Assembly: GCF_001598795.1 (NCBI RefSeq)
Contig: NZ_BCZP01000011.1
Coordinates: 30,001 to 62,000 of the forward strand
Length of the DNA: 32,000 bases
Direction: 5' to 3'
Source of the DNA: Delftia acidovorans NBRC 14950
GTDB taxonomy: Bacteria; Pseudomonadota; Gammaproteobacteria; Burkholderiales; Burkholderiaceae_C
Shown: one piece after another, positions 1 to 30,019 of the stretch
How positions within the stretch are numbered: position 1 is the first letter of the stretch
How the letters are laid out: the number at the start of each line of letters is the position of its first letter
Made by a program: the position numbers and the translations under genes
Notes under the pieces: generated by a model
The model's database searches: none
Told to the model about the DNA's origin: nothing
What the model saw: the letters and a program-made list of their open reading frames with translations, nothing else

Positions 1-319
1 GCGGCAGGTAGCCCCCCAGCAACGCGCCCAGCAGCTTCTTGCCGGTCTCGTCCGACAGCGAATGGCCGTACAGGCGGCCCACCTTGCGCAGCAGGCTCAG
101 CTGCACGCCGGTGAGGGCGATCAGGTCCAGGCCCGGAACCGGCAGGATGCCGATGCCCATGGCCGTGATCACGTGGTTCTTGATGGTGTGCAGGGCCTCG
201 TTTTGCCGCTCCTGCGGGGTCAGGGGCGCATCGGCTGTTTCAGCAGAGGCCACGGCAGCATCGGCAATGGCCGTGTCGGTGGCAGGGCTCACGGTACTTT
301 CGGCTTTTTCCACGCTCAT
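1..319 (-). CDS. DUF697 domain-containing protein (N-terminal part; ORF runs out of the window at position 1)
   Basis: ATG at 319-317, preceded by GGAG (330-327) with a 7-nt spacer. Hand translation: MSVEKAESTVSPATDTAIADAAVASAETADAPLTPQERQNEALHTIKNHVITAMGIGILPVPGLDLIALTGVQLSLLRKVGRLYGHSLSDETGKKLLGALLGGYLP... The block 'GIGILPVPGLDLIALTGVQLSLLRKVGRLYG' matches my memory of the DUF697 (YcjF-like) signature. It is absent from the ORF track because it is open-ended at the window edge. Confidence 0.6.
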   Translation of the reverse strand, partial: MSVEKAESTVSPATDTAIADAAVASAETADAPLTPQERQNEALHTIKNHVITAMGIGILPVPGLDLIALTGVQLSLLRKVGRLYGHSLSDETGKKLLGALLGGYLP

Positions 320-542: not shown

Positions 543-2147
543 TCAGCCTTCGGCTTTTCCGTAGAGGCGCTCGGCCGGGATGCCCAGATCCTCGCAGGCG
601 GCCAGCAGGGAGCGCACGGAGCGCATGGCGGCCGACTCCGGGTCGAACTCGATGCTGGTGATAAACGACAGCCACGGCTCCAGCCCCAGTGCATAGACGA
701 AGACCTGCTCGCACTGCAGCATGCGCAGCAGGCCCATGGCGCGGCGGTAGTCCGAGCCGTCGAGCCGGCGCGACTGGTCGCGTGCGCGGTCCAGCGGTGT
801 CGGCAGCAGCGGACCGTACAGCCAGCTCAGGGGCGCGCCCTCGCACTCCATGCCGATGAACAGGGCCTGCAGCGAACCCACCACGGGGCGCAGGTGCTCG
901 TACAGGCGAGGCTCCAGATTGTTGGAGTCCGCCGCGAACAGCAGGCGGCTGCCGGCGGCATCCACCAGCCAGGCGGCCTTGGTGCGAATGTCCAGATCGG
1001 CATGCTCGCCCAGGAAAGGCAGGGCGGTGACCGTCAGGTCGCCCTCGCTGAAGACCTCCAGCGGGCCGATTTCCTGCACATCGGCAAAGCCCGCCGCCTG
1101 CAGTGCGAGCTTGAGCGAGGGGTCGGCAAGACTGCCTCCCCCGCCGGCTGGCACCAGAACCCGACCGATGCGCGAGCGCAGGGCCAGCAAGGTCTCCAGC
1201 TGCACATGGTCCTGGTGGTTGTGCGTCAGCGCCACGCAGTCGATGCGCTGCGGCAGGTCGGCCAGCGTGAAGCGCGGTGTCTGGCCCGCGCTGCCACCGG
1301 CAGGCACCAGGGGATCGATCAGCACGCTGCGCCCACCTGGCGTCTCGACCAGCACGCAGGCATGGCCGAAATACCGCCAGCGCGCGCTGCCCACCGGCGC
1401 CGTGTCCGCCAGGTCCCCACCGCGCCGGGCCGGTGGCGTGCCGGTCAGCAAAGCGTGGAAGCGGTCGGCCCGCGCGCCCTCCAGCCCGAGCGACTCGGCG
1501 ATGGCATCGAAGGGGCGCGGTGCGTGCCGCAGCGCTGCCAGCATGTCGTTGGCGGGGCTGGCATACGGAATCTGCAGGGCGACCGCCCCGTCACGTTCGA
1601 GCTGCGGCGTGCCCAGGGCAAAGGGCCGCACATCGCCGCCGCGCATCACCAGCGTGCTCTGAGCCGAGGTGTCATACAGCGGGCTGCGGTAGAGCAGCGC
1701 CTCGATCAGGCGCAGGTCCGGTGCGCCGGTCAGCGAGTACACGAGCTCCGCATAGCCGCGCACCGAATCGGGAAGGCGCGGATACAGCTGCGCCATCGAA
1801 TGCCCATCGGCCTGGGTCTTGAGCAACTCCCAGCACTGCCCCAGGTCGGCAGCAAACGACAACAGCCCGGCATGGCGCTGGCGCGTCTCGTCCAGCAGGG
1901 CCTGGATGTCCCCGCGGCGCTCGGCCGGCCAGTCCATGAAGGGGCCGCCGCGCATGGCGGCATTGGCCACGGCCTGGGCATGCAGCTCGGGCGCCTCCAG
2001 ATAGGACTCCATGATGCGCACGTAGCGGTTGGCCAGGTACAGGGCCGCCGTGGCGGGCGAAATCAGAAAGGACCAGGCATACCAGCCCGCGAACCGTGGC
2101 ACGGCCACCACGTCCTCGCGCAGATAAAGCGGTGTTGCGTCAGCCAT
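543..2147 (-). CDS. CmlA-like nonheme diiron beta-hydroxylase candidate (N-terminal domain plus MBL-fold domain; would be annotated MBL fold metallo-hydrolase)
   Basis: ORF track 543..2159. I prefer the ATG at 2147 (MADATPLYL...) because GAGGAG lies 5 nt upstream and ATGGCTGA overlaps the upstream TGA stop (2142-2140). HxHxDH motif THNHQDH is at 1206-1226. Length is about 534 aa, with an N-terminal domain of about 260 aa ahead of the MBL fold. It is the last gene of an NRPS operon, the context described for CmlA-family beta-hydroxylases acting on carrier-bound amino acids. Confidence 0.55.
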   Translation of the reverse strand: MADATPLYLREDVVAVPRFAGWYAWSFLISPATAALYLANRYVRIMESYLEAPELHAQAVANAAMRGGPFMDWPAERRGDIQALLDETRQRHAGLLSFAADLGQCWELLKTQADGHSMAQLYPRLPDSVRGYAELVYSLTGAPDLRLIEALLYRSPLYDTSAQSTLVMRGGDVRPFALGTPQLERDGAVALQIPYASPANDMLAALRHAPRPFDAIAESLGLEGARADRFHALLTGTPPARRGGDLADTAPVGSARWRYFGHACVLVETPGGRSVLIDPLVPAGGSAGQTPRFTLADLPQRIDCVALTHNHQDHVQLETLLALRSRIGRVLVPAGGGGSLADPSLKLALQAAGFADVQEIGPLEVFSEGDLTVTALPFLGEHADLDIRTKAAWLVDAAGSRLLFAADSNNLEPRLYEHLRPVVGSLQALFIGMECEGAPLSWLYGPLLPTPLDRARDQSRRLDGSDYRRAMGLLRMLQCEQVFVYALGLEPWLSFITSIEFDPESAAMRSVRSLLAACEDLGIPAERLYGKAEG

Positions 2148-5100
2148 GTGTCTCCTCAAGCCAATAGGTCAGCGGCCGGTCCTGGTCCAGCGTCTCCAGC
2201 AGGTGCGCCATGGACTCCAGCAGGGCGTCGGCCACGGCGGGAGCGACCTTGAGCGCGTCGTGCACCGCCAGCAGGCGAAAATCGTCGCCGGGCATGACTT
2301 CCAGGTTGAACGGGTGGTGCCAGGCGTCACGGATGTCCACATCGTGAAAAGCCAGGGCGGCGCTGTCGCTGCCCAACTCGCCCAGCGGGTAGTTCTGAAT
2401 GCGCAGCGCCGTGCCGAACAGGTCATCGGCAGCGGCCAGCCCGGCGGCCGATGCGATAGCCCGCGGCGCCAGCCAGGCATGACCAGACGCCTGCATGCGC
2501 CGGCGCTGCAACTGCTGGCAGGCGGCGGCAAAGCCCTGCGCCCGGTCGAGCCTCACGCGCAACGGCGGTGTGGCCAACATGGCGCCCACCATGGCCTCGG
2601 CACCCTCGAGTTCGGCGGGACGCAGGGCCGAGGTGACGCCAAAGGCCAGGTCGTCGCGCCCCATGTGCCGCGCCAGCACCAGCGCCCACGCCAGCAGGGC
2701 CACGCTGGGCACCGACAGGCGGTGGCGGCGGGCAAAGGCAGCCACGCTGGCGCCCGTCCCGGCTGCCAGCACCCGGTGCACCTGGCGGGAACGTCCGCTG
2801 GCCACGGCTGCCTCGGCAGCAGGCCAACGCGAGGGCGCCAGGCCCGCCAGTTCATTCTTCCAGAAGGCCTGCGCGCTGCCCGCATCCTGCGCATCCAGCC
2901 AGTCGAGGAAGCGCCGCACGTCGGGCGCTGGAGTGTCGGGCGCCGCCGCGCCGGGCAAGCGGCCCGCATAAACGGCCTGCACATCGGCCATCAAAATCGG
3001 CATCGACCAGCCATCGACCAGCAGGTGATGGTAGGTCCAGCAAAAGCGCCAGCCGCCGTCCGGCATGCGGGCGAGCGCAAAGCGCATCAGCGGGGCGCGG
3101 GCAAGATCGAAGCCGCGCGCCTGCTCGATCTCGCGCAGCGCATCGTATGCGACCTGTGCATCGGCGGGTGTCCAGGCAGACCAGTCCTCGGTGCGCCAGG
3201 GCGCGGCGGTGAGGCTGTCGTCCACATGCTGGCGCCCCGACCCGTCTGCTGCGTCCACAGAGAAACAGCCGCGCAGCGCCGCATGGCGAGCCACGGCGGC
3301 GTTCCAGGCAGCCATGAAAGCGGGCACGTCCAGCGTCGCAGGCAGGCTGGCCCCCAGTTGCACCACATAGGCGGACGATCCCGGGCAGGCCAGGGCGTGG
3401 GCCAGCATGGCGTCCTGCTGCGGCCCCAGGCCATGCGAGGGCAAGGCTGGCGCGCGCAAGGACGGGCTGGCCTGTGCGCCGCCTGCCTGTACAGAACCGG
3501 CTTGCCGCGCACTGGCCGCCGCGTGCACCAGCCAGGCCTGCATGTCGGCGGCCAGCGCCGCAATCCAGCCTTCCTCCAGGTCCCGGGGATCGTAGGTGAG
3601 ATCCAGCGCCAGCCGCCCGTCCGCCACCATGGCATTGACTTCCAGCGGGAAGGCACGCGGCGTGCTCGCCGCGAAGCCCGGGCCATCGCGCTCCGGCGCA
3701 GGGCGCAGGCCCTCGCCTTCGGGCCAGGCCGTATCCCATTGCCCCAGGTAGTTGAAGGCGATGCCGGGCGGGGCCTGCGCGGCCAGGGCCTGGCGCACGG
3801 CCGGCTCGGGCGAAAGCTGGCTGAGCACGCCGTAGCCGAAGCCGCGCCGCGGCATGGCGCGCAGAGCCTCACGCACGACCGCAAGAGCAGACAGCGCGGA
3901 CGGGCCCGCAGCGCCGTCCGCAGGCGGGGCATCGGGCAACGATCGAGGCAGGGGCAGTGCCAGGGGTGCCAGCGCCGTGAACCACCCCACGGTGGAGCCC
4001 ACCTCCAGGCCTTCAAGCACCACATCGCGGCCATGCGACTCCAGCGCCACACCGATGCAGCGGCCCTGGACGCGACCGGCCAGGGCCGAGGCCAGCGCCG
4101 CCAGCAGCAGCTCCTGCATGGAGGCGCCATGGACCCGTGGCGCCTCGCGCAGCAAGGCGCCAGTCTCGTCCACGGACAACTGCACGCCGAGGGTGACGGC
4201 TCCGCCCACCGTGGAGGCCGCCCCGGCGCCACGCGCCAGCGGCAGGCAGGCGTCGCCTGACTGGGCCAGCCAGTACGGCAGCTCGGCACGCGCCGACTGC
4301 GATGCGGCATGGCGCGACACGGCTGCCGCCCAATGGCTGAAGGACGCGCCAGGCGGCCTGGCAATGCGGCCAAGGCGGCAGGCCTCGGCCAGATCGTCCA
4401 GCAGCACGCGCCAGGACACGGCGTCGATGGCCAGGTGGTGCACGACCAGATGCAGGCGCGCCTGTGCCTGTGCATGAGTTGGCGCCTCCTCCTGGCCCGG
4501 GGGAAGGTACAGAGCCGCGTGCATCAGCGGGCCCGCCTGCAGGTCCAGCCGCTCCTGGTTGGCCACGGCGGCGGCCTGCAGCCGCTCGCGCCATGCGGCC
4601 GGCGTTTCGCCAGGCGGCGATGCCACCACCTGCAGCAGCGGGACCGCAGGCGGCACAAGGCCATCGGCCAGCGTCTGCACCCAGCCGCCGTCCTCGCGGC
4701 GATAGCGCAGGCGCAGCGCATCATGGCGCTGCAGCAGCAGCGCCAGCGCGGCCTGCAGCCGTTCGGGCGCGAGGTCGGCAGGCACGGTCAACAGAAAACT
4801 CTGGTTGTAGTGCTGGCGCTGCGGAGCGTCCAGCGCCAGGAACCAGCGCTGGATGGGCGTGAGCGGCACGCGGCCATCGCCTGCAACGTCCTCGGTGGCG
4901 CGGGGCTGCACCACCGGCCCTCCGTCCTGATCCAGCAGCGCCACGAGAGCAGCCACCGTCTGCGAGGCCGGGTCCATCAGCTGCGCCAGCGTGATGGCCA
5001 GCCCCTGCCGGTTGGCCCGCGCAACCACCTGGATGGCAAGAATGGAGTCCCCGCCCAGCTCGAAAAAGCTCTGGTGCGGCCCCACCTCGGCAACGCCCAG

Positions 5101-8100
5101 CACCTGGGACCAGACCGCCGCCAGCCGCGCGCAGGCGTCGCCTGCAGCGGCGTCGGCGGCAGGCGCTGGCGAAGACGGCCGCGCCGGCTGCGCCGCCAGT
5201 TGCCGGCCCAGTGCCTGGCGGTCGATCTTGCCGCTGTGGGTGAGCGGGAGCTGGTTCAGCTCCACGAAATAGGCGGGAACCATGTGCGCAGGCAGGCGGG
5301 CCGCCAGGTACGCGCGCAACGCCTCGGCGCCGACGGGGTTCGCGGCGCCCACGCAGGCCGTCAGCCGGTGGTCGGCCTCGCCGTGCGCAATGACCAGCAC
5401 CGCTGCGGCCTCCACGCCCGGGTGGGTGGCCAGCGCAGCCTCGATTTCGCCCAGCTCGATGCGCAGGCCGCGCAGCTTGATCTGGTGGTCGTTGCGGCCT
5501 GCAAAGTGCACGCGCCCATCGGCCAGGCGCCAGCCCCGGTCGCCCGTGCGGTACAGCCGCTCGCCGGGGTCGCCGAACGGATCCTGCACAAAGCTGGCCG
5601 CCGTCAGCCCGGGACGCCCCAGGTAGCCCCGCGCCAGCCCTGCACCGCCGATGTACAGCTCCCCCGGCGCCCCCGGGGGCAGCAGGCGCATGTCCTCGTC
5701 CAGCACATGCAGCTGCATGTTCGGCAGCGGCCGTCCAATGGGCAGCTGGTCGGCGCGTTGCACGCCCTCCTGCACGCTGACAGCCACCGAAGCCTCGGTC
5801 GGTCCATAGGCATTGAAAAAGCGCCGGCCCACCGACCACCGCAGCGCCAACTCCGGTGCACAGGCCTCGCCGGCCACCACCAGCAGGCGCAGCGCATCAA
5901 GCGAGGCCGCCTCCAGGGTGGAAAGCACCGTGGGCGGCAGTGTTGCGGCGGTGATGCCATGGCGCCGCACAAAGGCCTGCAGCTGTGGCCCGGCCCTTGC
6001 CATGTCCGGGGCAGGCACCAGCAGCGCCGCCCCATGGCGCCAGGCCATGGTCATCTCCCAGACGGAGGCGTCAAAGGACAGCGAGGCGAACTGCAGCACG
6101 CGATCGCTTCCATCCAGCGCGAACACGCGCTGCTGGGCATGGGCCAGGGCGCGCATGCCCGCCCGCGTATTGACCACGCCCTTGGGCGTGCCCGTGGAGC
6201 CGGACGTATAGATCACATAGGCCGAGGACGAGGCCTGCGGTTGGGCAAGCACAGTGGCCTCGGCAGCCTCGTCTGGCGACATGGTGCCGAATAACTGCTC
6301 CGGCGTGAGGCAGCGCAAACCCAGTTCCTCCGCCACGGGCAGCGCGGCATCGGCCAGCACCAGCACTGCGCCGCTGTCCTCCAGCATGAAGCGCTGGCGC
6401 TGCGCCGGCAGCGCAGGGTCGATGGGCACAAAGGCTGCGCCCGCGCGCAGGATTGCGGCAATTGCCGCCAGGCATACGGGAGAGCGGCCCAGGCACAGGG
6501 CCACACGGGTTTCTTGCCCTGCACCCAGGGCATACAGCGAGCAGGCCGCCTGGCTCGACAGCCTCGCCAGTTGCGCATAGTCCATGCGACCGTGCGGCCC
6601 TTCCAGGGCCGTGGCGCCGGGCGTGTGCTGCGCCCAGTGGTCGATCCAGTCCACCAGAAAGCGCTCGTCCATGGTCTCGGCAGGGCCGGTGCCGGCCTCC
6701 AGGGCATCGCGCGCCTGCTCGGGCGCGAGCTGCAGCAGCGAGCCCAGTGCCTGACCGGGCTGCGCCGCCATGGCGGCAAGCAGCGCATCGAGGTGCGACA
6801 GCAGGCGGCGCGCTGCCGCAGCCGGCACCTGCTCGCGGTCGCGGTGCAGTGCCAGGCGCCATCCATCCGTGCCTTGCATGCAGGCCAGGGTGAGCAGGAA
6901 GTTGGTGCGCTCATGGCTGGCGACTGCGGCCAGGCACAGACCACCGGCCTGCAGCGCATCGGGCGCAGGATAGTTCTGCACCAGAACCAGGGACTGGAAC
7001 AGATCGCAGCCTGGCTCCAGTTCCGAGGCCTGGCGGATTTCCGCCAGCGATGCGGCCGCATGCTGCTCGCGCTCCAGGTGGTCCCGCTGCAGCGCGGACA
7101 GCCACGAGAGCAGCGGCATGCCGGCAGCCACACGCACACGCGCCGGCACCGTGGCGATCAGCATGCCGACCATTTGCTCCACGTCAGCGATGTCGGGAGA
7201 GCGCCCCGACACGGTCACACCGAACACCAGGTCGCGGCTGCCGCTGTGGCACGACAGCAGCAGTGCCCAGGCGGCCTGCAGCACGATGCCGGGCGTGGCA
7301 CGCGCGGCGCGGGCCAGCGCGGCCAGGGCGCTGCTGGTGGCGGGCGGCAGCAGGCATTCGATCGGGTCCGGAGCCTCAGGCTCGACAGGCTCCCCGGCCT
7401 GGCGCAGAAAGGCCAGTGAGGTGGGCTCGTGCAGGCCCTGCAACGCCTGGCGCCAAAAGGCCTGGTCGGCCTGCACGTCGCGCCGCTGGTGCCAGCGCAC
7501 GCAGTCGGCGAAATCGGGCGCGCGCGGCAGCGCTGGCGTGCCATCGCCCAGGGCCTGGCCGTACAGGCGGAAGACCTCGTCCATCACCACAGAGACCGAC
7601 CACCCGTCCAGCAGCAGGTGGTGGGCGCTCCACAACAGCTCATGGCGGTCTTCTGCCGTGTGCAGCAGATGCAGGCGCATCAGGGGCGCGTGGCGCAGGT
7701 CGAAGCCCCGGGCCCGGTCCTGCGCCAGCAGTGCCGACAGGGCGGCATGCTGCGCGGCCGTATCCATGGTGCGCCAGTCGTCGTGCTGCCAGGGCAGCTC
7801 CACGTGGGCATGCACATGCTGCATGGCCTCGCCATCGTCCCAGTGGAAGCTGGTACGCAGCACGCCGTGGCGTGCCACCACAGCTTCCCAGGCACGGCGC
7901 AGCGCTGCCGGGTCCAGCGGACCCTGCAGGGTCAGTGTCAATTGATCGAAGTAGACCTGGTCATCGGGTGCACGCAGACTGTGGTAGAGCAGGCCGTGCT
8001 GCAGGGGCGTGAGCGCCAGCACGGCCACCGGAGCACGGCTGCGGGGAACGGCCTGCGGCACCTGCCCGGCCGGGGCAGCACATGCTCCACGGCCCTCACG

Positions 8101-11100
8101 CGCGGCGCTGGCGATCTCGGCCAGCACGGTCTTCACCTCATCCAGCCATTGGGCGATGCGCTCGCGGTTCGGCCCCCCTGCCGGAAAGCTCAGTTCCCCG
8201 CGCAGCCGGCCATTCCAGAGCCCCGCATTGAGCTCGATCACATGGCTGCGCGCCAGTCCGGGGGCCTGCGCAGGTCCCGCCGCCTCATCCACCGGAGCGA
8301 TGGTCTCGTCCCCGGCAGGGGCGCCGTCCATGCGGCCCAGGTAGTTCAGCAGCAGTTCCGGTTCAGGCAGCGCGGCCAGGCCGGCGCGCACGGCGCCGTC
8401 GGGCGAGCGGTAGCGCAGCAGCCCCAGCGCCAGTCCCTGCCATGCGGCGCCGCGCACCTGAGCGGCAACCTGCGCCACCACCGCCGCGGCATCGGCGGCG
8501 CCGTGAGCTGGCTCGATGCCCACGCGCTGCAGCGCCGTGAACCAACCGACGGTGCGAGACAGGTCCAGCTCCTCGAAGAGGTCGGCGCGTCCGTTGCGCT
8601 CCAGATCCAGCCGCCAGGGACCATCCACCCCCAGCCGCACGCCTGCCACAACCAGGGCGGCGAGCAAAGCCTCGTCCACGCGGGCGGCAAAGGCACGCGG
8701 CACCTCGTGGACCAGGGCCTGCGTCGTCTCCTCGTCCAGTTCGAAGGCCAGGGTCTGGGCCTGGCCCACGCAACCGGCTGGCGTCTGGGGAGGCAACACG
8801 GTCGCGCCCACCTGGCTGAACGCCTGTTGCAACGCCTGCGCCTGCGCAGCCGCCTCGGGCCCGGCGGCCAGCTCGCCCAACCGGTGCGACCAGCGCGCAT
8901 AGGAGCTGGTGGGCGCGGGCAGTCGCACGGGCTCGCCGCGCGACACTTGTGCGCAGGCCAGGGCCAGGTCTTCCAGCAGTACCGACCAGGAATAGGCATC
9001 CACCGCCAGGTGGTGAATGGCCAGCATCAGCCGGCCCGTGCCGGGCAGCAGCACGCCACGCACCATGCGGCCGGACGCCGGGTCCATGGCGCGCTGGGCC
9101 GCGGCAAAGGCTTCGGCCTGGCGCTGCTGTGCCTCTGCCGGTGCAAGGCCCTCCAGGCAGACCACGTCCAGCACAGGCCCGGGCGCCATGGGGGCAATAT
9201 CCAGCACGCCTTGTGCGTCCACCCGCAGGCGCAGCATCTCGTGGCATGCCACCACGCCCGCGAGCGCCCGCTCCAGCGCTTCGGCCGGCAACTGCGGGGG
9301 CACGCGCAGCACGGCCGCCTGGTTGTAGTGAGCGGCCCCTGCCCCTGCATGCTCCAGGAACCAGGCCTGGATGGGGGTCGGTGACAACGGTGCCCCGGCC
9401 TCCGCCACCGGTACCGTCGGCGCGGCCCGCGACCGCAGGGCGATCTCCCCGGCCAGGGCACGCACGGTCTGGGTGCGGAAGATGTCGCGCACCACCAGGT
9501 CCAGGCCCTGGCGGCGCGCACGCGAGACGATCTGCAGGCAGCGGATGGAGTCCACACCCAAGTCGAAGACGTTGTCGGTGACGCCCACCTGCGCAAGGTT
9601 CATCACCTCGGCAAAGAGCCTGGCCAGGGTGGCTTCCAGCGGGCTGCAAGGCTGGGCCGTGCCGTCCGCCACAGGCAGCTGCGGCGGCGACTGGAGGGCC
9701 AGCCCCGCCAGCGCGCGCCGGTCGATCTTGCCCGATGCCGTATGGGGCAGGCTCTCCAGCACGCGGCACACGGCAGGCACCATGTAGGGCGCAAGCCGCT
9801 CGGACAGCCAGCTGCGCAGCGCCGCCGCATCGGCCTGTCCCGCAACCACCGCGAGCAACACCGGCTGGCCTGCGCCATCGTGCGCCAGCACCACGGCAGC
9901 CTCGCGCACGCAGGGATGGGCCATGAGGGCGGCCTCCACTTCGGCGGGCTCGATGCGAAATCCCCGGATCTTCACCTGCGCATCGCGCCGGCCCAGGAAC
10001 TCCAGCGCACCGTCGGCACGCCGCCTCGCCAGGTCGCCGCTCCAATAGGCGCGCGCCCCGCCCAGTGCGGCGCAGGCGCGAAAAGCGGCCTGTGTGGCCT
10101 CGTCCTGTTGCAGATACCCCTGCGCCACACCACCGCCGCCGATGACGATTTCGCCGATGGCCCCGGCAGGCAAGGCCTGCCCGGCGCTGTCCACCACGGC
10201 CAGTTGCACGCCCTGCAGCGCATGGCCCAGAGGCAGGATCTCGGCCGCCAGAGGCAGCACGTCGTGCGCGGGGTCGAAGAACGCGGCCGAAATGGTGGCC
10301 TCCGTCGGGCCATAGCCGCTGAGCAGGGCCACAGGATGGCGGCACAGCGCCTGCCACTGGCGCAAGCTGCGCACGAAAACGCGGTCGCTGCCCGTGACCA
10401 CCAACCGCAGGGCGGGCGGAACAGCCGTGCCCGATGCATGCAGCATGCCCACCCACTCGTGCCAGAACGCGGACGGCAGATTGAGCACGGTCAGCCGCGC
10501 GCCTGCCACCTGGGCCTGGAAAGCCTCCAGGCTGTCAAGACTGTTCTGTGCCCGCAGCACCACGCAGGCACCGGAGGCCAGCGTGGGGAAGATCTCCTCG
10601 GCAGCCACATCGAAATCGGGTGCCGCGAACTGCAGCACGCGATCGGTCTCGCACAGGCCGAACTCACGCGCCACCGCCGCCGCATGGTGGGCCAGGTTGG
10701 CATGGCTCACGACCACGCCCTTCGGGGCGCCGGTCGATCCCGAGGTGAAGCAGACATAGGCCCGTTGCGCGGGGTCTGCGAGCCAGGGCTGCTGCGCGGC
10801 GCTGCCGGCAGGCTCTGCCACCAGGTCCGGCGCCAGGTCCGGCGCTACCAGCACCGTATGCGAAGGCCACTGCTCCGCCGCAGACGCGGTAATGACCAGG
10901 CGCACGCCGGCCGCCTCCATCATGGTCGCGCGCTGTGCCAGCGGCCTCGCCAGGCTGAGTACGGCATAGGCACAACCACAGCGCCAGGCCGCCAGCATGG
11001 CCACCGGCAAAGCCAGGCAGTTGCCCAGGCCCAGGCCGATCAGGTCGCCGGGCCTGGCACCCGCGCCGCGCAGTCGCCCGGCCAGTGCGTCGGCCTGGCA

Positions 11101-12770
11101 CACAAGCTCGCGCAGCGAAAGTGCCGCGCCATCCGCCTGCACGGCCATGCGCTGCGGCCAGCGATCGGCAGCGCGGGCTATCAGCGCGGGGACGGATGCC
11201 GGCGCAGCGCCCTCGGGCATGGCTGGTGCGGGAGCCACGGCGCAGGCCTGCGGGGCCAGCGCCAGCCGGGACAGTGCAAGGCCGCACGCCCACTGCCCCG
11301 CCACATGCGCAAACTGCGCGCACAGCGCAGCCACGGTGGCCGGGTCGAACAGGTCGGCGTCGTACTCCATGTCGCAGGCGAAGGCTTCGCCGTCCAGACG
11401 CGCCGACAGGTTCAGGTCCAGCTCTGGCGCCGCCGCTGGCACGGGCAGCGGCCGCACGGCCAGCCCCTGCATCGCCAGCACGGCTGCACCAGCGGTCTGC
11501 TGCACGAACATGGTCTGGAACAGGGGCGCACGGTTGAGCGCCCGCTCGGGCCGCACGGCCTGCACGATGCGCTCGAACGGCAGGTCCTGGTGCTCGAATG
11601 CCTGCAGGCAGGTGCGGCGAACGCGCTGCAGCAGCTCGGCAGGTTGGGGGTCGTCGCGCAGGTCGATGCGCAGCGGCAGGGTGTCGATGAAGAAACCGAC
11701 CAGTCCCTGCGTCTGCGGCGTGTCCCGGTGGGCCACCGGGCAGCCGATGACGACCTCGTCCTGGCCGGTCCAGCGCCCCAGCACGGCGGCATAGGCGGCC
11801 AACAGCGCCATGAAGGGCGTGACGCCTGCGCGTGCTGACGCCTCCTGCAGCGCCTGGGTGCCCTCCGGCGAGATGCGAAAGTGATGGTGGGCGCCACTGG
11901 CGCCGCGCTCTGCGGGCCGGGGCCTGTCCAGCGGCATCGCCAGCTGGGTGGGTGCGCCCTGCAGTTGCGACTGCCAGAAGGCCAGTTGCGGCGCCAGCCG
12001 CGCCTCATCCAGCGTGGCGCGCTGCCAGGCCGAGTAGTCTGGGTAGCGCAGGGGCAGCGGTTGCAGCGGCGACGGCAGGCCCTGGCAGGCCGCGTCATAC
12101 AGCTGGCCGAGTTCGGCCAGCAGCAGCCCCATGGACCAGAAATCCCCGGCAATGTGGTGCAGCGACAGGGCCAGCACGTGGCGCTGCGGCTCCAGTGCAA
12201 ACAGGCGCAGCCGCAAGGGGGGCGCCTGCGTCAGATCGAAGGGCTGGCGCGCCTGCTGCGCCATCAGGTCGGCCAGGCCCTGGGGTGAGGCATCGTCCAC
12301 GGACTCTGGCTGAAGGCGCACGGCCGTGGCAGCGCCGATGCGCAGCACCGGCTCGGCGGCCTCGTCCACGATGACGCTGCGCAGCAGCTCGTGGCGCTCC
12401 ACCAGCACCGTCAGCGCCTGCTGCAGGGCCTCAAGGTCCAAAGGGCCTTCGAGCTCGAAACAGGCGGCCATGATGAAGGCGCTGCCACCGCCCTCCAGCC
12501 GGTCCAGGAACCAGAGCCGGCGCTGGTTGAAGGACAGCGGCACGCGGTCGGGATCCACCTCTGCAGCAGCTCCTGCGGCCACTGGCGCGGGCCCGCTGCG
12601 TGACAGCAGGGCCAGCAGCTGCGGCTTGAGAGCGCGCAGCTCATCGCGCATCTGCCCGCCAATGGCACCTGCCGGGCCGCGCACTTTCAGATCGCCGCCC
12701 TCGACTTGCACGGTCACGCCCAGCTGCGCCAGGCGGGCCAGCAGATCGCTTGCCCTGTCGCTCGCACTCT

Positions 12771-12774
<4 letters not shown>
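2140..12774 (-). CDS. Non-ribosomal peptide synthetase, two modules: TubC-like docking domain-C-A-T-E-C-A-T-E-C (terminal condensation domain, no TE)
   Basis: ORF track 2140..12813. The preferred start is ATG 12774 (MKSASD...), which forms an ATGA overlap with the upstream stop and has GGAGGA 11 nt upstream. Motifs read from sequence, in order: HHIAGD 12142-12159; TSGSTG 10729-10746; carrier Ser (DLGVDS) 9547-9549. E domain 1: PIQAWF, HHLAVD 8998-9015. C domain: HHLLLD 7606-7623. A domain 2: TSGSTG 6190-6207, FDASVWE 6055-6075; carrier Ser (GGDS) 5044-5046. E domain 2: PIQRWF, HHLAID 4423-4440, FNYLGQ. Terminal C: HHLLVDGWS 3013-3030. Confidence 0.95.
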
Positions 12775-23830
<11,056 letters not shown>

Positions 23831-23834
<4 letters not shown>

Positions 23835-26800
23835 GGCAGCGCCTTGGTTGCTGCAGCGCCGTGGGCGGCCGCCTTTTGATCAGGGGTCATGCTTTCGATC
23901 TCGAACAGCCGGCCCGCAATGGCCAGCGTGATTCCCGGGCGGGATTCCAGCGCAATCACGCGCTGGCAAAAATCTGCCATGCAGGGGTGGCGCAACAGCT
24001 CGGCCATCGATATATCGACGCGAAACAGCTCCCGCGTGCGCGCCGCGATCTGCGCCGCCCCCAGCGAATTGCCGCCCAGCGAGAAGAAGTCGTCGTCCAC
24101 ACCACAGTCGGCCAGGCCCAGCGCCTTGCACCACAGGCGCACCATGTAGCGCTCGAACGCATTGCGTGGCGCTGCGCTGGATGCCATGCCCGCAGCCAGG
24201 CGCAAAAGGGCCGCGCGGTCCAGCTCCCCCCGGGCATCGGTGGGCAGGGATGCGACGTTCAGCACCGGCACGCTCACCGGCCGTCCACAGGCATCGTGCA
24301 GCCACCGATGCGGTGCGGACGGGTCACCGCTGCCGGCCACTTCATTCACTTGCTCCACTTGATCCACTTGATCCTCTTCGCCGGCACGGCGCGCGTCGAC
24401 TGCGGCGCCTTCACGCACCCAGACCAGCTCATCGGCACCGTAGATGGCGCCCTCGCGCACCGCGGCGTGACGGGGATGGCCGAGGTCCAGGCCCACGGTC
24501 ATGACAGGCTGCTCGCCGCGCACCGCCAATTCGAAGGCCTGCAGGCCCTGCGCCTCATCGATCGACAGATAGCCCGAGGCAGCGAACAGCGCCGGGTTCG
24601 ACACCTGGCGGCTCAGGCCGATGTCCCGCCACGCCGAAAAACCGAGGTAGCGGCAGCGGGCGCCACCGGCGCTGTGCGCCTGTCGCTCCACAAAGGCCAT
24701 CTGCCAGGCATCTCCCGCCGCATAGGCCGCCACGCGGCGCCCCCCCAGCAGGCCCATGACCGAGCCGGCCACCAGGAACAGGGCCCGGGGATCGTGGGCG
24801 ATCAGGGCGTGCAAATGGCGCGTTCCCTCGACCTTGGCGCGCTGCGCCCGGGCAAAGCATTGCTCTTCTTCCTCCGCACACAGGGCCAGGCGCGACTCGG
24901 CTGCCAGTTGCACCACGCCGGCCAGCGGCTGTCCGAAGTGCTGCTGCGCCTGGGCCACCGCGGCCTGCAGGGCGGCGGGGTCGGTGACATCGGCCTGCAC
25001 GTACAGGAGCGTCCCGCTGCGCGAAAGCAGTTCCAGTGGCTGCCGGCGCTCCACAGCAGGGGCACGGCCGACGATGAGCAGCCGGGCGCGGTACCGGCCG
25101 AGCAGGTGCCGGGCCAGCAAAAAGCCCACGCCCCCCAGCCCACCGGCCAGCAGGTACAGCCCCTGCTCCTGGAATCCCTGATGCCCTGCAGCATCGGGAA
25201 CCAGGGGCACCAGGGGCACCAGGGGCACCAGGCGCCGCACCCGCCGCACGCCGGCATGCCACAGCACCTCGGGCTCGCGCTGGCTGCAGCCCAGTTCCGC
25301 GCACAGCCCGGCGGCATCAAGAACGGCGGCATCGGCAGCGACACTGGCGTCGGCATCGGCAGCGACACCGGCGTCGCCCCAGGCGACATGGCGGCAGCGC
25401 AAGGCAGGCATTTCAGCCTCCAGACTGCGCAGTACCGCGCGCGCCATTGCCCGCTGGCCCTCGTCCTGAGCCGTACCTGCGCAGACCAGCAACCGGCCTG
25501 GCACATGCCCGCCGGGGGCGGCCAGCCAGCGGGCTGCCTGCAGCAGGCCAGGGGCCAGCGCCTGTTCACCGGCCAGCACCAGCACATCAGGCGCCCACTC
25601 GCGCAACGCGGCCACGGCGTCGGCCGGTGAGCCGGTATCGTCCAGCGCCATCCAGCGGTGACGGGGCTGCAGGGCCTGCAATTGCGCCAGCGCCTGGGCG
25701 CCGGCACCACACAGCGCCACAGTCAACGCATGCGCCTGCGCAGGCGCCATGGCCGGCAACGCATCGTGCTGGCGCGGGCGCCATACGGGCCGGGCAAACC
25801 AGGCAGGTATGGTGCCTGCACCGCCGATCAGGCAGGCGGCATCCTTGATTTCGCGATCAAAGGCCCCTGTCTCCACCAGGCGGCGCAGCTCCACGCGCTG
25901 CACCTTGCCGGCACCCGTGCGCGGCAGGCGCTCGGGCGGCACGGCAATGAAATGGTCCACGGCCAATCCCAGGTCCTGGCCCAGGCGCATGCGCAAGGCG
26001 CGCATGAGCGAACGGCGCAGTTGCGGCTCGCCAGCGCCCGGCGCGTGAAAGAACAGCACCAGTTGGTCGGTGGCCGCGCCGGCCGGGCGCACGCCGATGG
26101 CAGCCAGCCCCTGGCGGTCCAGGCCGGGCACGCGCGCAGCGGCCTCCTCGATCTCGGCGCTGTAGAAATTGGCACCGTTGACGATGATCATTTCCTTGAC
26201 GCGGCCCACGATGTGCAGCTCGCCCGAACGCAGGAACCCCATGTCGCCGGTCTGGAACCAACCGTTGCGCAGCGCCTCGGCCGTGAGGTCGGGCCGGCCG
26301 TGATAGCCCGAGAACACCGAGGGCCCGCTGAGTTCGACCCGCCCGATCTCACCCTCCATCAGGGTGCGGCCTGCATCGTCCACGATGCGCTGTGCACCGC
26401 CTGCGATCGGGTGGCCCAGGCTGGTCACCGCCTCGCCGGACGCTGTCCAGCAACGCAGCGAGAACGCAGAGACCGTCTCGGTCATGCCAAAGGACATCCA
26501 GACGGCGCCCTGCCTGAGCCCGTCCTGCGCAAAGCGGCGCTCGAAATCCACGAGGACCGGCTCCGATACCGGCTCCCCGGCGTTGATGAGCATGCGCAAA
26601 CAGGACAGGTCCCAATGGCCGGGGGCCTGGCCGCGGGCTGCACGCAGCAGCAGGTCGAATGCAAAGTTGGGCGCCCACACCGCTGCGACCCGGTGCTCGG
26701 CCACGAGGTCCAGCCAGCGCGCGGGAGCCTCGAGGATGGTGGCCGTATCCACCTGGACCTGGTCCAGGCCCAGCACCGTAGGCATCACGCACAGGAACAC

Positions 26801-27913
26801 CACGCCGCCCACATGGTCCAGCGGCATCCAGTTCAGCGCGGTCTCGCCGGGCGCGAAGCGCAGTTGCTGCTGCACGCCGCTGATCATGGCGGCCAGATTG
26901 CCGCGGCTCAGTACCACGCCCTTGGGCGTTCCGGTGCTGCCCGAAGTCAGCAGCATCAGTGCGGGCTGCCCCGGCCCGGCGCTGGCCGAGGGCTGCGCGG
27001 GCGCACCCGCCTGCAGTGCCTGGGCATCGAGCAGCTGCATGCCCTGCAGCGCTGCGGCATGGGGCCGCAAGCCGGCCAGGGCTGCCGCAGAGCCGACCAC
27101 GGGCGCCCTGCCCGCCACCTCCCAGCAGTTGAGCAACCGCTCCAGGCCGGCCCCCCCGGCCGCCGCCGGTCCCAGTGCCAGAGGCGCCGGCACCAGGCCG
27201 CCGAGCACACAGCCCCAGAACACGGGCAGCAGGTGACGACTGTCCCCGGCGTCCACGATGACGGTGTCACCCGCCTTCAGCCCCAGGGCCAGCAGCCCGC
27301 CCAGGGTGCGGCAGGCCTCGTCGAGCAGTTGCGCATAGCTGGTGCGGGACTGGGAAAGATCGGCAGCCACATGGACGATGCCCGCTCCGGGACGCGCAGC
27401 CGCGCGCACCAGCGCCTGCTCCAGCGCATATCCGACACCCGCGTCCGGCAGCGCAGGTGAATGGTGGACGGCAGGAATGCGCTCGTGCAAAGGCACCGCG
27501 CCGCGCCGCGCCGCAGGTGCGGGCGCCGGATCGCCCAGCAAGGGCCGGCCGGGCAGCAGATCGCACAGGTGCAGGTGGGAAGCCGGCTGCACGGCAGGCC
27601 GGGTGACCAGCGCGCTGCCCCATTGCTGCTGCGCGGCGTCGACCGCGCCCGGTGACCAGACTGGCAGTGCGGCCAGGGCGGCCTCGTCGATGGCGCCCAT
27701 GTCATCGAGCGGCAAGGCGCTGACCCGCACCACCGCATCGCCTGCGCCAGCCAGGGCAGCCTGCAGGGTATCGCGCTCTCCGCCCACCACGTAGGCGACC
27801 AGACCGTCGAACCCCGCAGCATTGCGCCGTGAAAGATGCACATCGGCGGCTCCCACCGCCATCAGGCGGGCTTTCAGACCGCCCGCTTCCGCCCCGCTGT
27901 CCGTACCCGCCAT
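23831..27913 (-). CDS. Loading subunit: adenylate-forming (FAAL/A-domain-like, ANL superfamily) domain - PKS-type ketoreductase (with structural subdomain) - peptidyl/acyl carrier protein
   Basis: ORF track 23831..27967 begins at a TTG. I prefer ATG 27913 (MAGTDSG...), which has GAAGGG about 9 nt upstream and sits downstream of the predicted promoter/TSS. Motifs: LTSGSTGTPKG 26930-26947; NWMPLDHVGG; IVNGANFYSAEIE; A10-like GAGKVQR with Lys codon 25904-25906; KR Rossmann AGGLGGVG 25124-25147 with K/S/Y candidates; carrier FFSLGGNS with Ser codon 24065-24067. Confidence 0.9.
24337..24381. repeat. Imperfect in-frame 9-bp tandem repeat (about 5 copies, CCACTTGAT-like) encoding EEDQVDQVEQVNEV between the KR and carrier region of the loading subunit
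   Basis: Plus strand reads ccacttcat tcacttgct ccacttgat ccacttgat cctcttcgc. Confidence 0.75.
25200..25235. repeat. In-frame 9-bp tandem repeat (ACCAGGGGC x3 plus one variant) encoding LVPLVPLVPLVP just upstream of the KR Rossmann fold
   Basis: Plus strand reads accaggggc accaggggc accaggggc accaggcgc. Confidence 0.85.
25327..25374. repeat. 24-bp tandem duplication (2 copies, one mismatch) encoding DAGVAADA/DASVAADA in the KR structural subdomain region
   Basis: cggcatcggcagcgacactggcgt (25327-25350) is followed directly by cggcatcggcagcgacaccggcgt (25351-25374). Confidence 0.85.
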
Positions 27914-27978
27914 CGATCCGATCCCTTCAAAGCTGTGGCTCCGACGCCGATTCACTGCCCTGCCCAAAGACCGGCCGG

Positions 27979-28007
27979 ATAGTTACAAACATTTTCTTTA
28001 ATGTCAA
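27979..28007 (-). promoter_or_regulatory. Putative sigma70 promoter of the NRPS-PKS operon (TTGACA-17 nt-AACTAT with extended -10 TGn)
   Basis: Minus strand reads TTGACA (28007-28002), the 17-nt spacer TTAAAGAAAATGTTTGT, then AACTAT (27984-27979). The TG of an extended -10 lies within the spacer end (tgT-AACTAT). The predicted TSS near 27972 leaves a leader of about 59 nt before ATG 27913. Confidence 0.5.
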
Positions 28008-28102
28008 TGCAGCCATTCTCATTAAGAGAAGGTTCAATGGAAACATTGGCATGCCAACGCAAGAGAAACGCCGACAGCAAAGCCTGGCAAATTCAATTGA
28101 TT

Positions 28103-28122
28103 ATTGAAAATGGATTTTCAAT
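28103..28122. promoter_or_regulatory. Perfect inverted repeat ATTGAAAAT-GG-ATTTTCAAT (candidate regulator binding site upstream of the operon promoter)
   Basis: Read directly: attgaaaatggattttcaat, with 9-nt arms and a 2-nt spacer. It lies in the AT-rich block about 100 nt upstream of the -35. The adjacent TCAATTGA palindrome is at 28093-28100. Confidence 0.35.
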
Positions 28123-28139
28123 ATATTTTCACCGCATGT

Positions 28140-28161
28140 ATATCACTGAAATCAGTGATAT
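28140..28161. promoter_or_regulatory. Perfect inverted repeat ATATCACTGA-AA-TCAGTGATAT (candidate operator/activator site)
   Basis: Read directly: atatcactgaaatcagtgatat, with 10-nt arms and a 2-nt spacer, about 135-155 nt upstream of the -35. Confidence 0.35.
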
Positions 28162-28534
28162 CGACATCGTGGCGTCAAAGAGCGGCGCCAGGAAGAGCGG
28201 GCGGCAAGATCACGGCGAAAGCCATGCAGGCCCGGGAACTGAAGGGTGACTGCAAGAGAGCTGCTGACCTTGAACGGGCAGGATATGGGCAGGGCATAGG
28301 CAGGCGGCCAATGCACCATGGCTGTGCATGAAAACGGTCATCAGTGGCAGCCCTGCCATGAATAAGCATGCCACCCATAAATCAGTGCTGCCAGGATCTT
28401 TTTTTTGACGCAAGCGCTTATTGAAGCAATTGCGCCACAGTCACGGAAACAGCACGGAAAGCCATCGAAACAAAACAATGCAAATTCCGAGCTGGGCAGG
28501 GGCCAGGATTTGCACGAGGAAGATCGTCCAGACG

Positions 28535-28570
28535 AAAAAAAGCCCCTCGGATTTTATCCGAGAGGCTTTT
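28535..28570 (-). terminator. Rho-independent terminator downstream of tRNA-Val
   Basis: Minus strand reads AAAAGCCTCTCGGAT-AAA-ATCCGAGGGGC followed by TTTTTTT. The stem is 28542-28566, with an A-run at 28535-28541 and a T-run at 28567-28570 on the plus strand. It starts about 13 nt after the tRNA 3' end. Confidence 0.7.
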
Positions 28571-28582
28571 CACCAATATATT

Positions 28583-28659
28583 TGGTAGGCGCGATTGGAC
28601 TCGAACCAACGACCCCCACCATGTCAAGGTGGTGCTCTAACCAGCTGAGCTACGCGCCT
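28583..28659 (-). tRNA. tRNA-Val (anticodon GAC), CCA encoded
   Basis: The reverse complement is AGGCGCGTAGCTCAGCTGGTTAGAGCACCACCTTGACATGGTGGGGGTCGTTGGTTCGAGTCCAATCGCGCCTACCA, 77 nt. It folds as a cloverleaf: 7-bp acceptor stem; D arm GCTC/GAGC; anticodon stem CCACC/GGTGG with loop TTGACAT; T arm GTTGG-TTCGAGT-CCAAT. It closely resembles the E. coli tRNA-Val(GAC) I recall. An extended -10-like TGCTATACT lies upstream at about 28679-28687. Confidence 0.95.
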
Positions 28660-29995: not shown

Positions 29996-30019
29996 TGCGG
30001 TCTCCTTGTCATGCGGGCT

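Follow-up and report, generated by a model that had tools for sequence, protein, structure and literature searches.

The stretch of DNA analyzed here (the window) comprises 32,000 nucleotides of the genome of Delftia acidovorans NBRC 14950, positions 30,001 to 62,000 of contig NZ_BCZP01000011.1. Four minus-strand proteins are found in it by Pfam, encoded in DNA of about 72% GC, and together they almost certainly identify the locus as the Delftia representative of the kasumigamide (kas) family of mixed nonribosomal peptide synthetase (NRPS) and polyketide synthase (PKS) clusters. The subject of this report is the condensation (C) domain with which the third of these proteins, KasC, comes to an end, in an assembly line in which no thioesterase (TE) or reductase domain is matched by Pfam in any of the four kas proteins. 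The coordinates of the features discussed are collected in Table 1.

Table 1. Features of the kas locus, in window positions; the last row gives positions on other contigs, and residue numbers of KasC count from the GTG at 12813 unless stated otherwise
Feature	Position	Strand	Remarks
kasA	23831..27967	-	A-KR-T loading module, 1378 aa; Pfam AMP-binding, KR, PP-binding
kasB	12771..23834	-	C-A-T-C-A-T-KS-AT-KR-T, 3687 aa; Pfam
kasC (dakasC)	2140..12774	-	dock-C-A-T-E-C-A-T-E-C, 3544 aa counted from ATG at 12774
kasD	543..2147	-	CmlA-like diiron β-hydroxylase, 534 aa; PF18456 CmlA_N, E = 1.4e-71
kasC/kasD overlap ATGGCTGA	2140..2147	-	kasD start codon (2147-2145) over kasC stop codon (2142-2140)
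KasC-A2, last adenylation domain	5200..6681	-	hand-derived code DAWTVAAVAK, Phe/phenylserine type
T6, carrier domain of last module	5029..5130	-	GGDS phosphopantetheine site at ~5029-5055; bears the chain to be released
E2, second epimerization domain of KasC	3562..4869	-	HHLAIDAVSW at 4411-4440; HHxxxD at aa 2792
KasC terminal C domain	2143..3438	-	aa 3126-3557 from GTG; Pfam Condensation, PDB phmmer
Active-site motif YHHLLVDGWS	3004..3033	-	HHLLVD 3013-3030; HHxxxDG core at 3010-3030
Clade-specific Arg	2401..2403	-	aa 3471 in ALRIQNYP; replaces Val before QNYP
Clade-specific Trp-His-His	2314..2322	-	aa 3498-3500; in place of DCL consensus Thr-Asn-Tyr before P(L/F)
DUF697 gene, 5' part	1..316	-	start at 316; first of the conserved downstream genes, leaving the window
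tRNA-Val	28583..28659	-	upstream border of the cluster
Downstream gene string	L001 11829-16806; L010 18549-23722; L012 11591-16707; L013 11686-16840		

In KasB, Pfam matches two stretches each for Condensation and AMP-binding and three for PP-binding, together with ketoacyl-synt, Acyl_transf_1, and KR domains, arranged as modules for β-Ala and Trp followed by a PKS module responsible for Ahipa, the statine-type unit. Matches in KasC are to five Condensation, two AMP-binding, and two PP-binding domains and one TubC_N docking domain, and its open reading frame (ORF) can be extended upstream to the GTG (2140–12813, minus strand), giving 3557 residues. In KasD, the CmlA_N domain is followed by a metallo-β-lactamase fold with an HNHQDH motif. 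All four genes are linked by end-to-start overlaps (ATGA, ATGA, and ATGGCTGA; the kasC ATG overlaps the kasB stop codon as ATGA) and therefore look translationally coupled.

The same organization was described in PMC5061366 (Nakashima et al. 2016, PLoS One) for KasA (A-KR-PCP, where PCP is a peptidyl carrier protein; phenylpyruvate-to-phenyllactate loading), KasB (C-A-PCP-C-A-PCP-KS-AT-KR-ACP, where ACP is an acyl carrier protein), KasC (C-A-PCP-E-C-A-PCP-E-C), and the CmlA-like hydroxylase KasD. The published proteins have 1381, 3694, 3560, and 529 residues and those of the window 1378, 3687, 3557, and 534, in the same domain order. Homologous clusters were reported in the same paper for Delftia acidovorans CCUG 274B (dakasA–J, 70.6% GC) and for Herbaspirillum sp. 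CF444. With kas, dakas, and hkas the window has in common the gene set, the domain orders of KasA, KasB, and KasC, the protein sizes, the adenylation (A) domain codes, the CmlA-like β-hydroxylase, and a terminal C domain without a fused TE. The window cluster is the published dakas cluster or a variant of it from another strain or species, and in a genome-contig search the sole match of its terminal C domain is in Delftia tsuruhatensis NBRC 16741, at 98% identity. The feature is accordingly already known: the same cluster, organism group, and remark have been in print since 2016, whereas a preliminary description of this DNA had regarded the case as an open one, not seen before. Later literature that was found only cites the 2016 work, and the kas release step is tested in none of it. 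What is added here is the conservation of the terminal C domain across Delftia, Herbaspirillum-like loci, and Entotheonella, its divergence from other DCL domains, and the Arg and Trp-His-His/Tyr signatures described below.

The terminal C domain is complete and occupies the last ~430 residues of KasC, from about residue 3127 (window 3435), after the second epimerization (E) domain, with the stop codon (2140–2142) about 12 residues past it. When the last 456 residues of KasC were compared with the Protein Data Bank (PDB) by phmmer, DCL-type C domains were matched over query residues 26–438, the best match being McyB (8hlk, E = 5.5e-54), followed by PvdL, bacitracin synthase 3 (BacC), TycB, and SrfA-C. 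The second His of the HHxxxDG motif is residue 3263 (codon 3025–3027), or residue 3250 in the count from the ATG. Position after an E domain, the presence of HHxxxDG, and the closest known relatives thus all assign the domain to the DCL type; on the other hand, no A-T module follows in cis, the next gene being kasD, as an elongating domain of this type would have it. The preliminary description, which had placed a DCL-like C domain with an intact motif at the very end of the protein, is borne out in both respects, with HHLLVD falling exactly at 3013–3030. This observation could not be a product of chance.

To place the domain among its relatives, KasC orthologues were drawn from a representative search, ranked by summed multi-domain score and re-ranked by BLAST of the single domain; a word-indexed search with the C domain alone gave four matches and missed the full-length orthologues. 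Full-length KasC proteins of the same architecture were found as P0013 (locus L010), as P0051, at loci L012 and L013, and as P0115 of Entotheonella, along with two fragments, P0001 (L009) and P0002 (L008). Loci L010, L012, and L013 stand in for Herbaspirillum sp. CF444, and the latter two have a GC content of about 62%. The protein P0115 (3577 residues) is identified as the Entotheonella KasC because the sizes of its neighbors (3694, 540, 168, 215, 173, 341, and 305 residues) reproduce Table 1 of PMC5061366, and it aligns with the window KasC over its full length, domain by domain, in the same dock-C-A-T-E-C-A-T-E-C order. A further candidate with a terminal C domain, P0039 (3515 residues), was rejected, as its A-domain codes and N terminus differ.

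Identity of the terminal C domain to that of Delftia is 55.7% in P0013, 47.7% in P0051, and 34.6% in P0115, compared with 52–59%, 45–53%, and 35.5–41.7%, respectively, for the other catalytic domains. On alignment, the terminal C domain is thus conserved about as well as the other catalytic domains of KasC. The HHxxxDGWS motif does not vary among the six kas-type terminal C domains, and 44 columns, the whole catalytic motif included, are invariant (alignment A1). The reading frame of the domain is intact in every locus, with the possible exception of L008 (2–2940), a metagenomic relative of 41% identity in which the E–C junction is split into overlapping ORFs of 467 and 512 residues. This split is either a sequencing frameshift or the sign of a separate terminal C protein, and a CmlA_N gene lies directly after the terminal C domain at this locus.

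Outside the catalytic motif, the domain departs from its type. A DCL consensus was defined as the 108 columns at least 70% conserved in 369 background DCL domains, which themselves retain 91.7 ± 6.3 of these columns; the internal DCL domains of KasC retain 84–96, and unrelated terminal DCL-like domains retain 82–102. The kas terminal C domains retain only 68–82, and the 73 retained in Delftia place it among the lowest 1–2% of the 369 domains. At the column occupied by the clade-specific Arg, Val is found in 78% of the background domains and Arg in none of 373 non-kas DCL domains. In the W-H-H/Y signature, the Trp and the first His are invariant in alignment A1. In addition, the PxQxG motif is without its Gly, and the Phe of GxF(I)NT is replaced with Leu or Met. 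Of the five complete terminal C domains that were compared, four have Ala in place of the Gln of the C6-region motif, and that of Entotheonella has Glu. A retained catalytic center in a remodeled surround is what a changed nucleophile or partner would produce, without amounting to proof of either.

Conservation extends to the specificity codes. Stachelhaus positions were placed by hand from motif anchors, following the GrsA numbering. The code of KasC-A2 is identical to that of Entotheonella (DAWTIAAVCK) at eight of 10 positions, and that of KasC-A1 (DVENVTGISK) matches its counterpart (DVENIVAITK) at seven of 10; the hand-read code of KasB-A1, VDWVTSLADK, is of the β-Ala type. The A-domain codes therefore fit the β-Ala, Arg, and Phe/phenylserine of KasB and KasC, as expected of the kas family. 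Kasumigamide (C40H50N8O9) is a linear peptide that ends in D-erythro-phenylserine with a free C-terminal carboxylate, is made by the orthologous clusters of Entotheonella and Microcystis, and consists of six building blocks for six modules (PMC5061366). Delftia itself would presumably make kasumigamide as well.

The surroundings of the cluster bear on its release step as well. A protein identical to KasD occurs on many public contigs, in six of which same-strand genes continue past window position 1. On contig L001, these genes are, in order, DUF697, a 257-residue thioesterase (PF00975), genes for proteins of ~190 and ~60 residues, an ABC exporter of the cyclic-peptide type (TIGR01194, 6e-98), Band_7, and a phosphopantetheinyl transferase (PPTase). 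The thioesterase gene (L001 12437–13210) lies 290–1063 nucleotides past window position 1, and its product has the marks of a type II thioesterase (TEII): a stand-alone PF00975 protein of ~250 residues with GCSLG (GxSxG) and GGHFF motifs and a C-terminal His, whose closest solved relatives are RifR (9.4e-37), RedJ, ClbQ, YbtT, and SrfTEII. The preliminary description had stated that the operon holds no TE, reductase, or other release domain. For the synthetase this stands, none being fused to it; for the operon it is an artifact of the window edge, because on the public contigs the TEII gene starts just 290 nucleotides beyond it.

In four beta-proteobacterial loci (Delftia, L010, L012, and L013), kasC is followed by DUF697, the TEII, the ~190-residue gene, the ABC exporter, and Band_7; the ~60-residue gene is seen in L001 and L010, where it was checked. 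Among these loci, kasD lies between kasC and DUF697 in Delftia only, and it does not adjoin the terminal C domain in L009, L010, L012, L013, or Entotheonella, in the last of which it precedes kasA. Every beta-proteobacterial kas cluster has the downstream string, and Entotheonella lacks it; relative to Entotheonella, the beta-proteobacterial clusters have DUF697, the TEII, Band_7, and the PPTase in addition. In Entotheonella, no TE gene is found within 10 kb downstream of kasC or in the published kasA–I table (PMC5061366), and the Entotheonella sponge contains kasumigamide even though no TE gene lies near kasC. The ~190-residue protein has a signal-peptide-like N terminus, and the ~60-residue protein is a membrane peptide. 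Export or self-protection is a possible role of DUF697, Band_7, and these two small proteins.

Release through the terminal C domain was proposed in PMC5061366, where the kas genes were found to be without a TE domain, termination was described as probably proceeding through a C domain, and in kasC, dakasC, and hkasC the C domain at the C terminus was expected to serve as a thioesterase. The same proposal in the preliminary description is a reasonable one, and of the three routes that it had considered (condensation with a free amine or alcohol, macrocyclization, and hydrolysis), hydrolysis is the sole one that fits the known product. Its more particular suggestion of an external amine, or of an internal hydroxyl of the starter or the statine (the Ahipa unit) giving a depsipeptide, conflicts with the linear free acid made by the Entotheonella and Microcystis orthologues. 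Since six modules give six units and a free acid, the terminal C domain does not elongate the chain in those hosts, nor does an amine or internal hydroxyl serve as its nucleophile there; given the linear, free-acid form of kasumigamide, water is the most likely nucleophile. The terminal position, the want of an acceptor carrier domain, and the free-acid product of the Entotheonella and Microcystis pathways are all as in a hydrolytic terminal C domain. We assign a probability of roughly 0.5 to the reading that the terminal C domain would hydrolyze the thioester with water and free a linear acid.

In such a mechanism, the finished chain would rest on the last carrier domain, where E2 would equilibrate the C-terminal residue between the L and D configurations. 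The terminal C domain, descended from a DCL elongation domain, would have a donor side suited to D-configured thioesters by virtue of that descent, and with no carrier domain downstream, its acceptor side would receive water, or nothing that is carrier-bound. The intact HHxxxDG site would then deliver water to the thioester, and the product leaving the enzyme would be a linear free acid whose C terminus, D-erythro-phenylserine, has the D configuration. The off-window TEII would be an editing or backup enzyme, and we infer that the C domain rather than the TEII would perform the hydrolysis.

Several observations weigh against hydrolysis by the terminal C domain. The TEII is conserved two genes downstream of kasC in all four beta-proteobacterial loci examined, and RedJ and ClbQ, which are among its relatives, off-load carrier-bound intermediates. 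The D-selectivity of the terminal C domain is suggested by its DCL ancestry alone. The role of the kas terminal C domain as a thioesterase is only expected in PMC5061366, and kasumigamide production by Delftia was not confirmed there. Moreover, the Microcystis makas cluster is without a terminal C domain, and release is unclear in that case, yet it yields kasumigamide (PMC5061366); not every host, therefore, needs the domain.

Few C domains that release a free acid have been proven biochemically (CroK-C2 and fungal IvoA), and such release is rare. One precedent is IvoA of Aspergillus nidulans (Hai, Jenner & Tang 2019), an A-T-E-C protein whose DCL-clade terminal C domain frees D-Trp as an acid, as summarized in PMC12751119 and PMC11546977. 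KasC shares the T-E-C terminus, likened here by description and not by sequence; IvoA, a fungal protein, has only one module and frees an amino acid, whereas the kas product is a hexa-unit peptide–polyketide. In bacteria, CroK-C2 of the crocacin pathway (Mueller et al. 2014, as related in PMC12751119; the hydrolytic C domain of crocacin is also cited in PMC11546977) is a hydrolytic C-like domain at the end of an NRPS–PKS line without a TE, and a linear carboxylic acid results. The kas terminal C domain likewise ends an NRPS–PKS line without a fused TE, again a likeness of description and not of sequence. An E domain is not known to precede CroK-C2. Other C domains, VibH and glidonin C13 (PMC10587159), end the chain with a free small-molecule nucleophile, and domains of this kind are known from Burkholderiales, but their products carry a C-terminal amine in contrast to the free carboxylate of kasumigamide, and C13 lies inside a C-A*-T-TE module instead of being terminal. 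Fungal CT domains of the TqaA type resemble the kas domain in their terminal position and in having no acceptor carrier domain; they carry a SHxxxDx motif and give cyclic products (PMC10510592). CT-type macrocyclization is excluded for the kas domain by its HHLLVDG motif and by the linear product of the orthologues.

The strongest competitor to hydrolysis by the C domain, although an unlikely one in our estimate, is that the off-window TEII is the release hydrolase in Delftia and that the terminal C domain serves as a scaffold or gatekeeper that holds the D-epimer, or as a dock for KasD, in the manner of X domains. The PF00975 protein with its GxSxG and GGHFF motifs is conserved downstream of kasC in Delftia, L010, L012, and L013, with RifR, RedJ, ClbQ, and YbtT as its best solved relatives, and the makas pathway works without a terminal C domain (PMC5061366). 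Entotheonella, however, presents the reverse situation, a terminal C domain but no TE, either in the published cluster or in the 10 kb that follow. Furthermore, type II thioesterases beside NRPS genes are most often editing enzymes. As for the other function that the C domain would then have, an HHxxxDGWS motif that is invariant over 34–56% identity would be needless in a pure scaffold, and X domains have lost it; an X-domain-like inactive scaffold is excluded by this invariant, nondegenerate motif. A dock for KasD would suit the translational coupling that links the end of kasC with kasD in Delftia, as well as the CmlA_N gene that comes after the terminal C domain in L008, but not the five loci in which kasD lies elsewhere.

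The remaining alternatives are considerably less probable. Condensation of the chain with a nucleophile other than water, be it an external amine or alcohol or an internal hydroxyl, would mean that the Delftia product is not kasumigamide, which we regard as improbable. The intact HHxxxDG motif would permit it, putrescine capture by C domains has been shown for glidonins and is reported to be widespread in Burkholderiales peptides (PMC10587159), the Delftia product has never been isolated (PMC5061366), and the beta-proteobacterial clusters have extra genes absent in Entotheonella. Against this, orthologous clusters yield a linear free acid, Delftia and Entotheonella have orthologous terminal C domains with the same clade signatures, and neither the 10 kb downstream nor the stretch of the window upstream of kasA shows an amine-supplying gene. 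Decay of the domain into a functionless relic, with the chain lost by spontaneous or nonspecific hydrolysis, is more doubtful still: low retention of the DCL consensus (73 of 108 columns) and the absence of the domain from makas could be read in this way, but in three phyla-level hosts it is conserved to the same degree as the working A, E, and C domains, 44 columns including the entire catalytic motif are invariant, and its reading frame is open at all loci but perhaps L008. Because it is conserved like the catalytic domains and HHxxxDGWS is invariant, the terminal C domain is not a relic. We give the least credence to an ordinary DCL elongation domain served in trans by an acceptor module (A-T or A-T-TE) encoded elsewhere. 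Such a domain would be of the DCL type, follow an E domain, and have its motif intact, as here, and the inspection covered just 10 kb downstream and ~4 kb upstream of the cluster; no A or T gene is present in the part of the window that lies upstream of kasA or in the 10 kb that follow kasD, the number of modules, six, is exactly that of the building blocks of kasumigamide, the ~12 residues past the domain leave no C-terminal docking element, and about one-third of the DCL consensus positions are lost.

Beyond hydrolysis in Delftia alone, it is conceivable, although somewhat less probable than the hydrolysis itself, that kas terminal C domains are a bacterial subfamily of their own, made up of hydrolytic release domains that derive from DCL domains and select for the D configuration, and that the TEII only edits. 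If so, the subfamily would be recognizable by an intact HHxxxDGWS, the Arg for Val before QNYP, W-H-H/Y for T-N-Y, and the loss of Gly from PxQxG. Only the D-configured chain would be freed as an acid, such that the terminal C domain would read out the equilibrium set by the E domain, and linear-acid release from T-E-C termini would be predictable by a sequence rule. C-domain release in the kas family has been no more than a stated expectation since 2016, and the clade-specific residues are concrete targets for mutation. Delftia is culturable and Entotheonella is uncultivated, which would make Delftia a practical host in which to settle the roles of the terminal C domain and the TEII. For genome mining, a T-E-C terminus can point to a linear acid with a D terminus, and a seemingly missing TE calls for a check past the edge of the sequence in hand.

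CmlA acts on a carrier-bound substrate. For kasumigamide, the hydroxylase was proposed to act on free L-Phe, as the Microcystis A domain prefers threo-phenylserine (PMC5061366). The tight coupling of kasC and kasD in Delftia may bear on the timing of β-hydroxylation in the kas pathway. The first C domain of KasC, which receives the chain from a PKS carrier domain, has the active site LHHIAGDFWS (~12100–12125), in which HHIAGDF (HHxxxDF) places a Phe at the usual Gly position.

At the other end of the cluster, the tRNA-Val gene and the pyrimidine-catabolism genes beyond it mark the border, and a spacer of 55% GC at 27968–28582, in surroundings of ~72% GC, parts kasA from the tRNA gene. The cluster is present in only one of four D. 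acidovorans genomes (PMC5061366) and looks like an island inserted beside tRNA-Val; a repeat of the tRNA-Val gene or its flank, which would mark the far end of the island, was sought in the 10 kb downstream of kasD and not found there. In KasA, about 200 residues without a Pfam match (27368–27967) precede the adenylation domain, and the start codon is uncertain: the ORF opens with TTG, and residue 19 is an internal Met. Ahead of the KR domain (25000–25040 region), the KasA linker has a short tandem PLV repeat, RLVPLVPLVPLVPDAAG, which is probably trivial.

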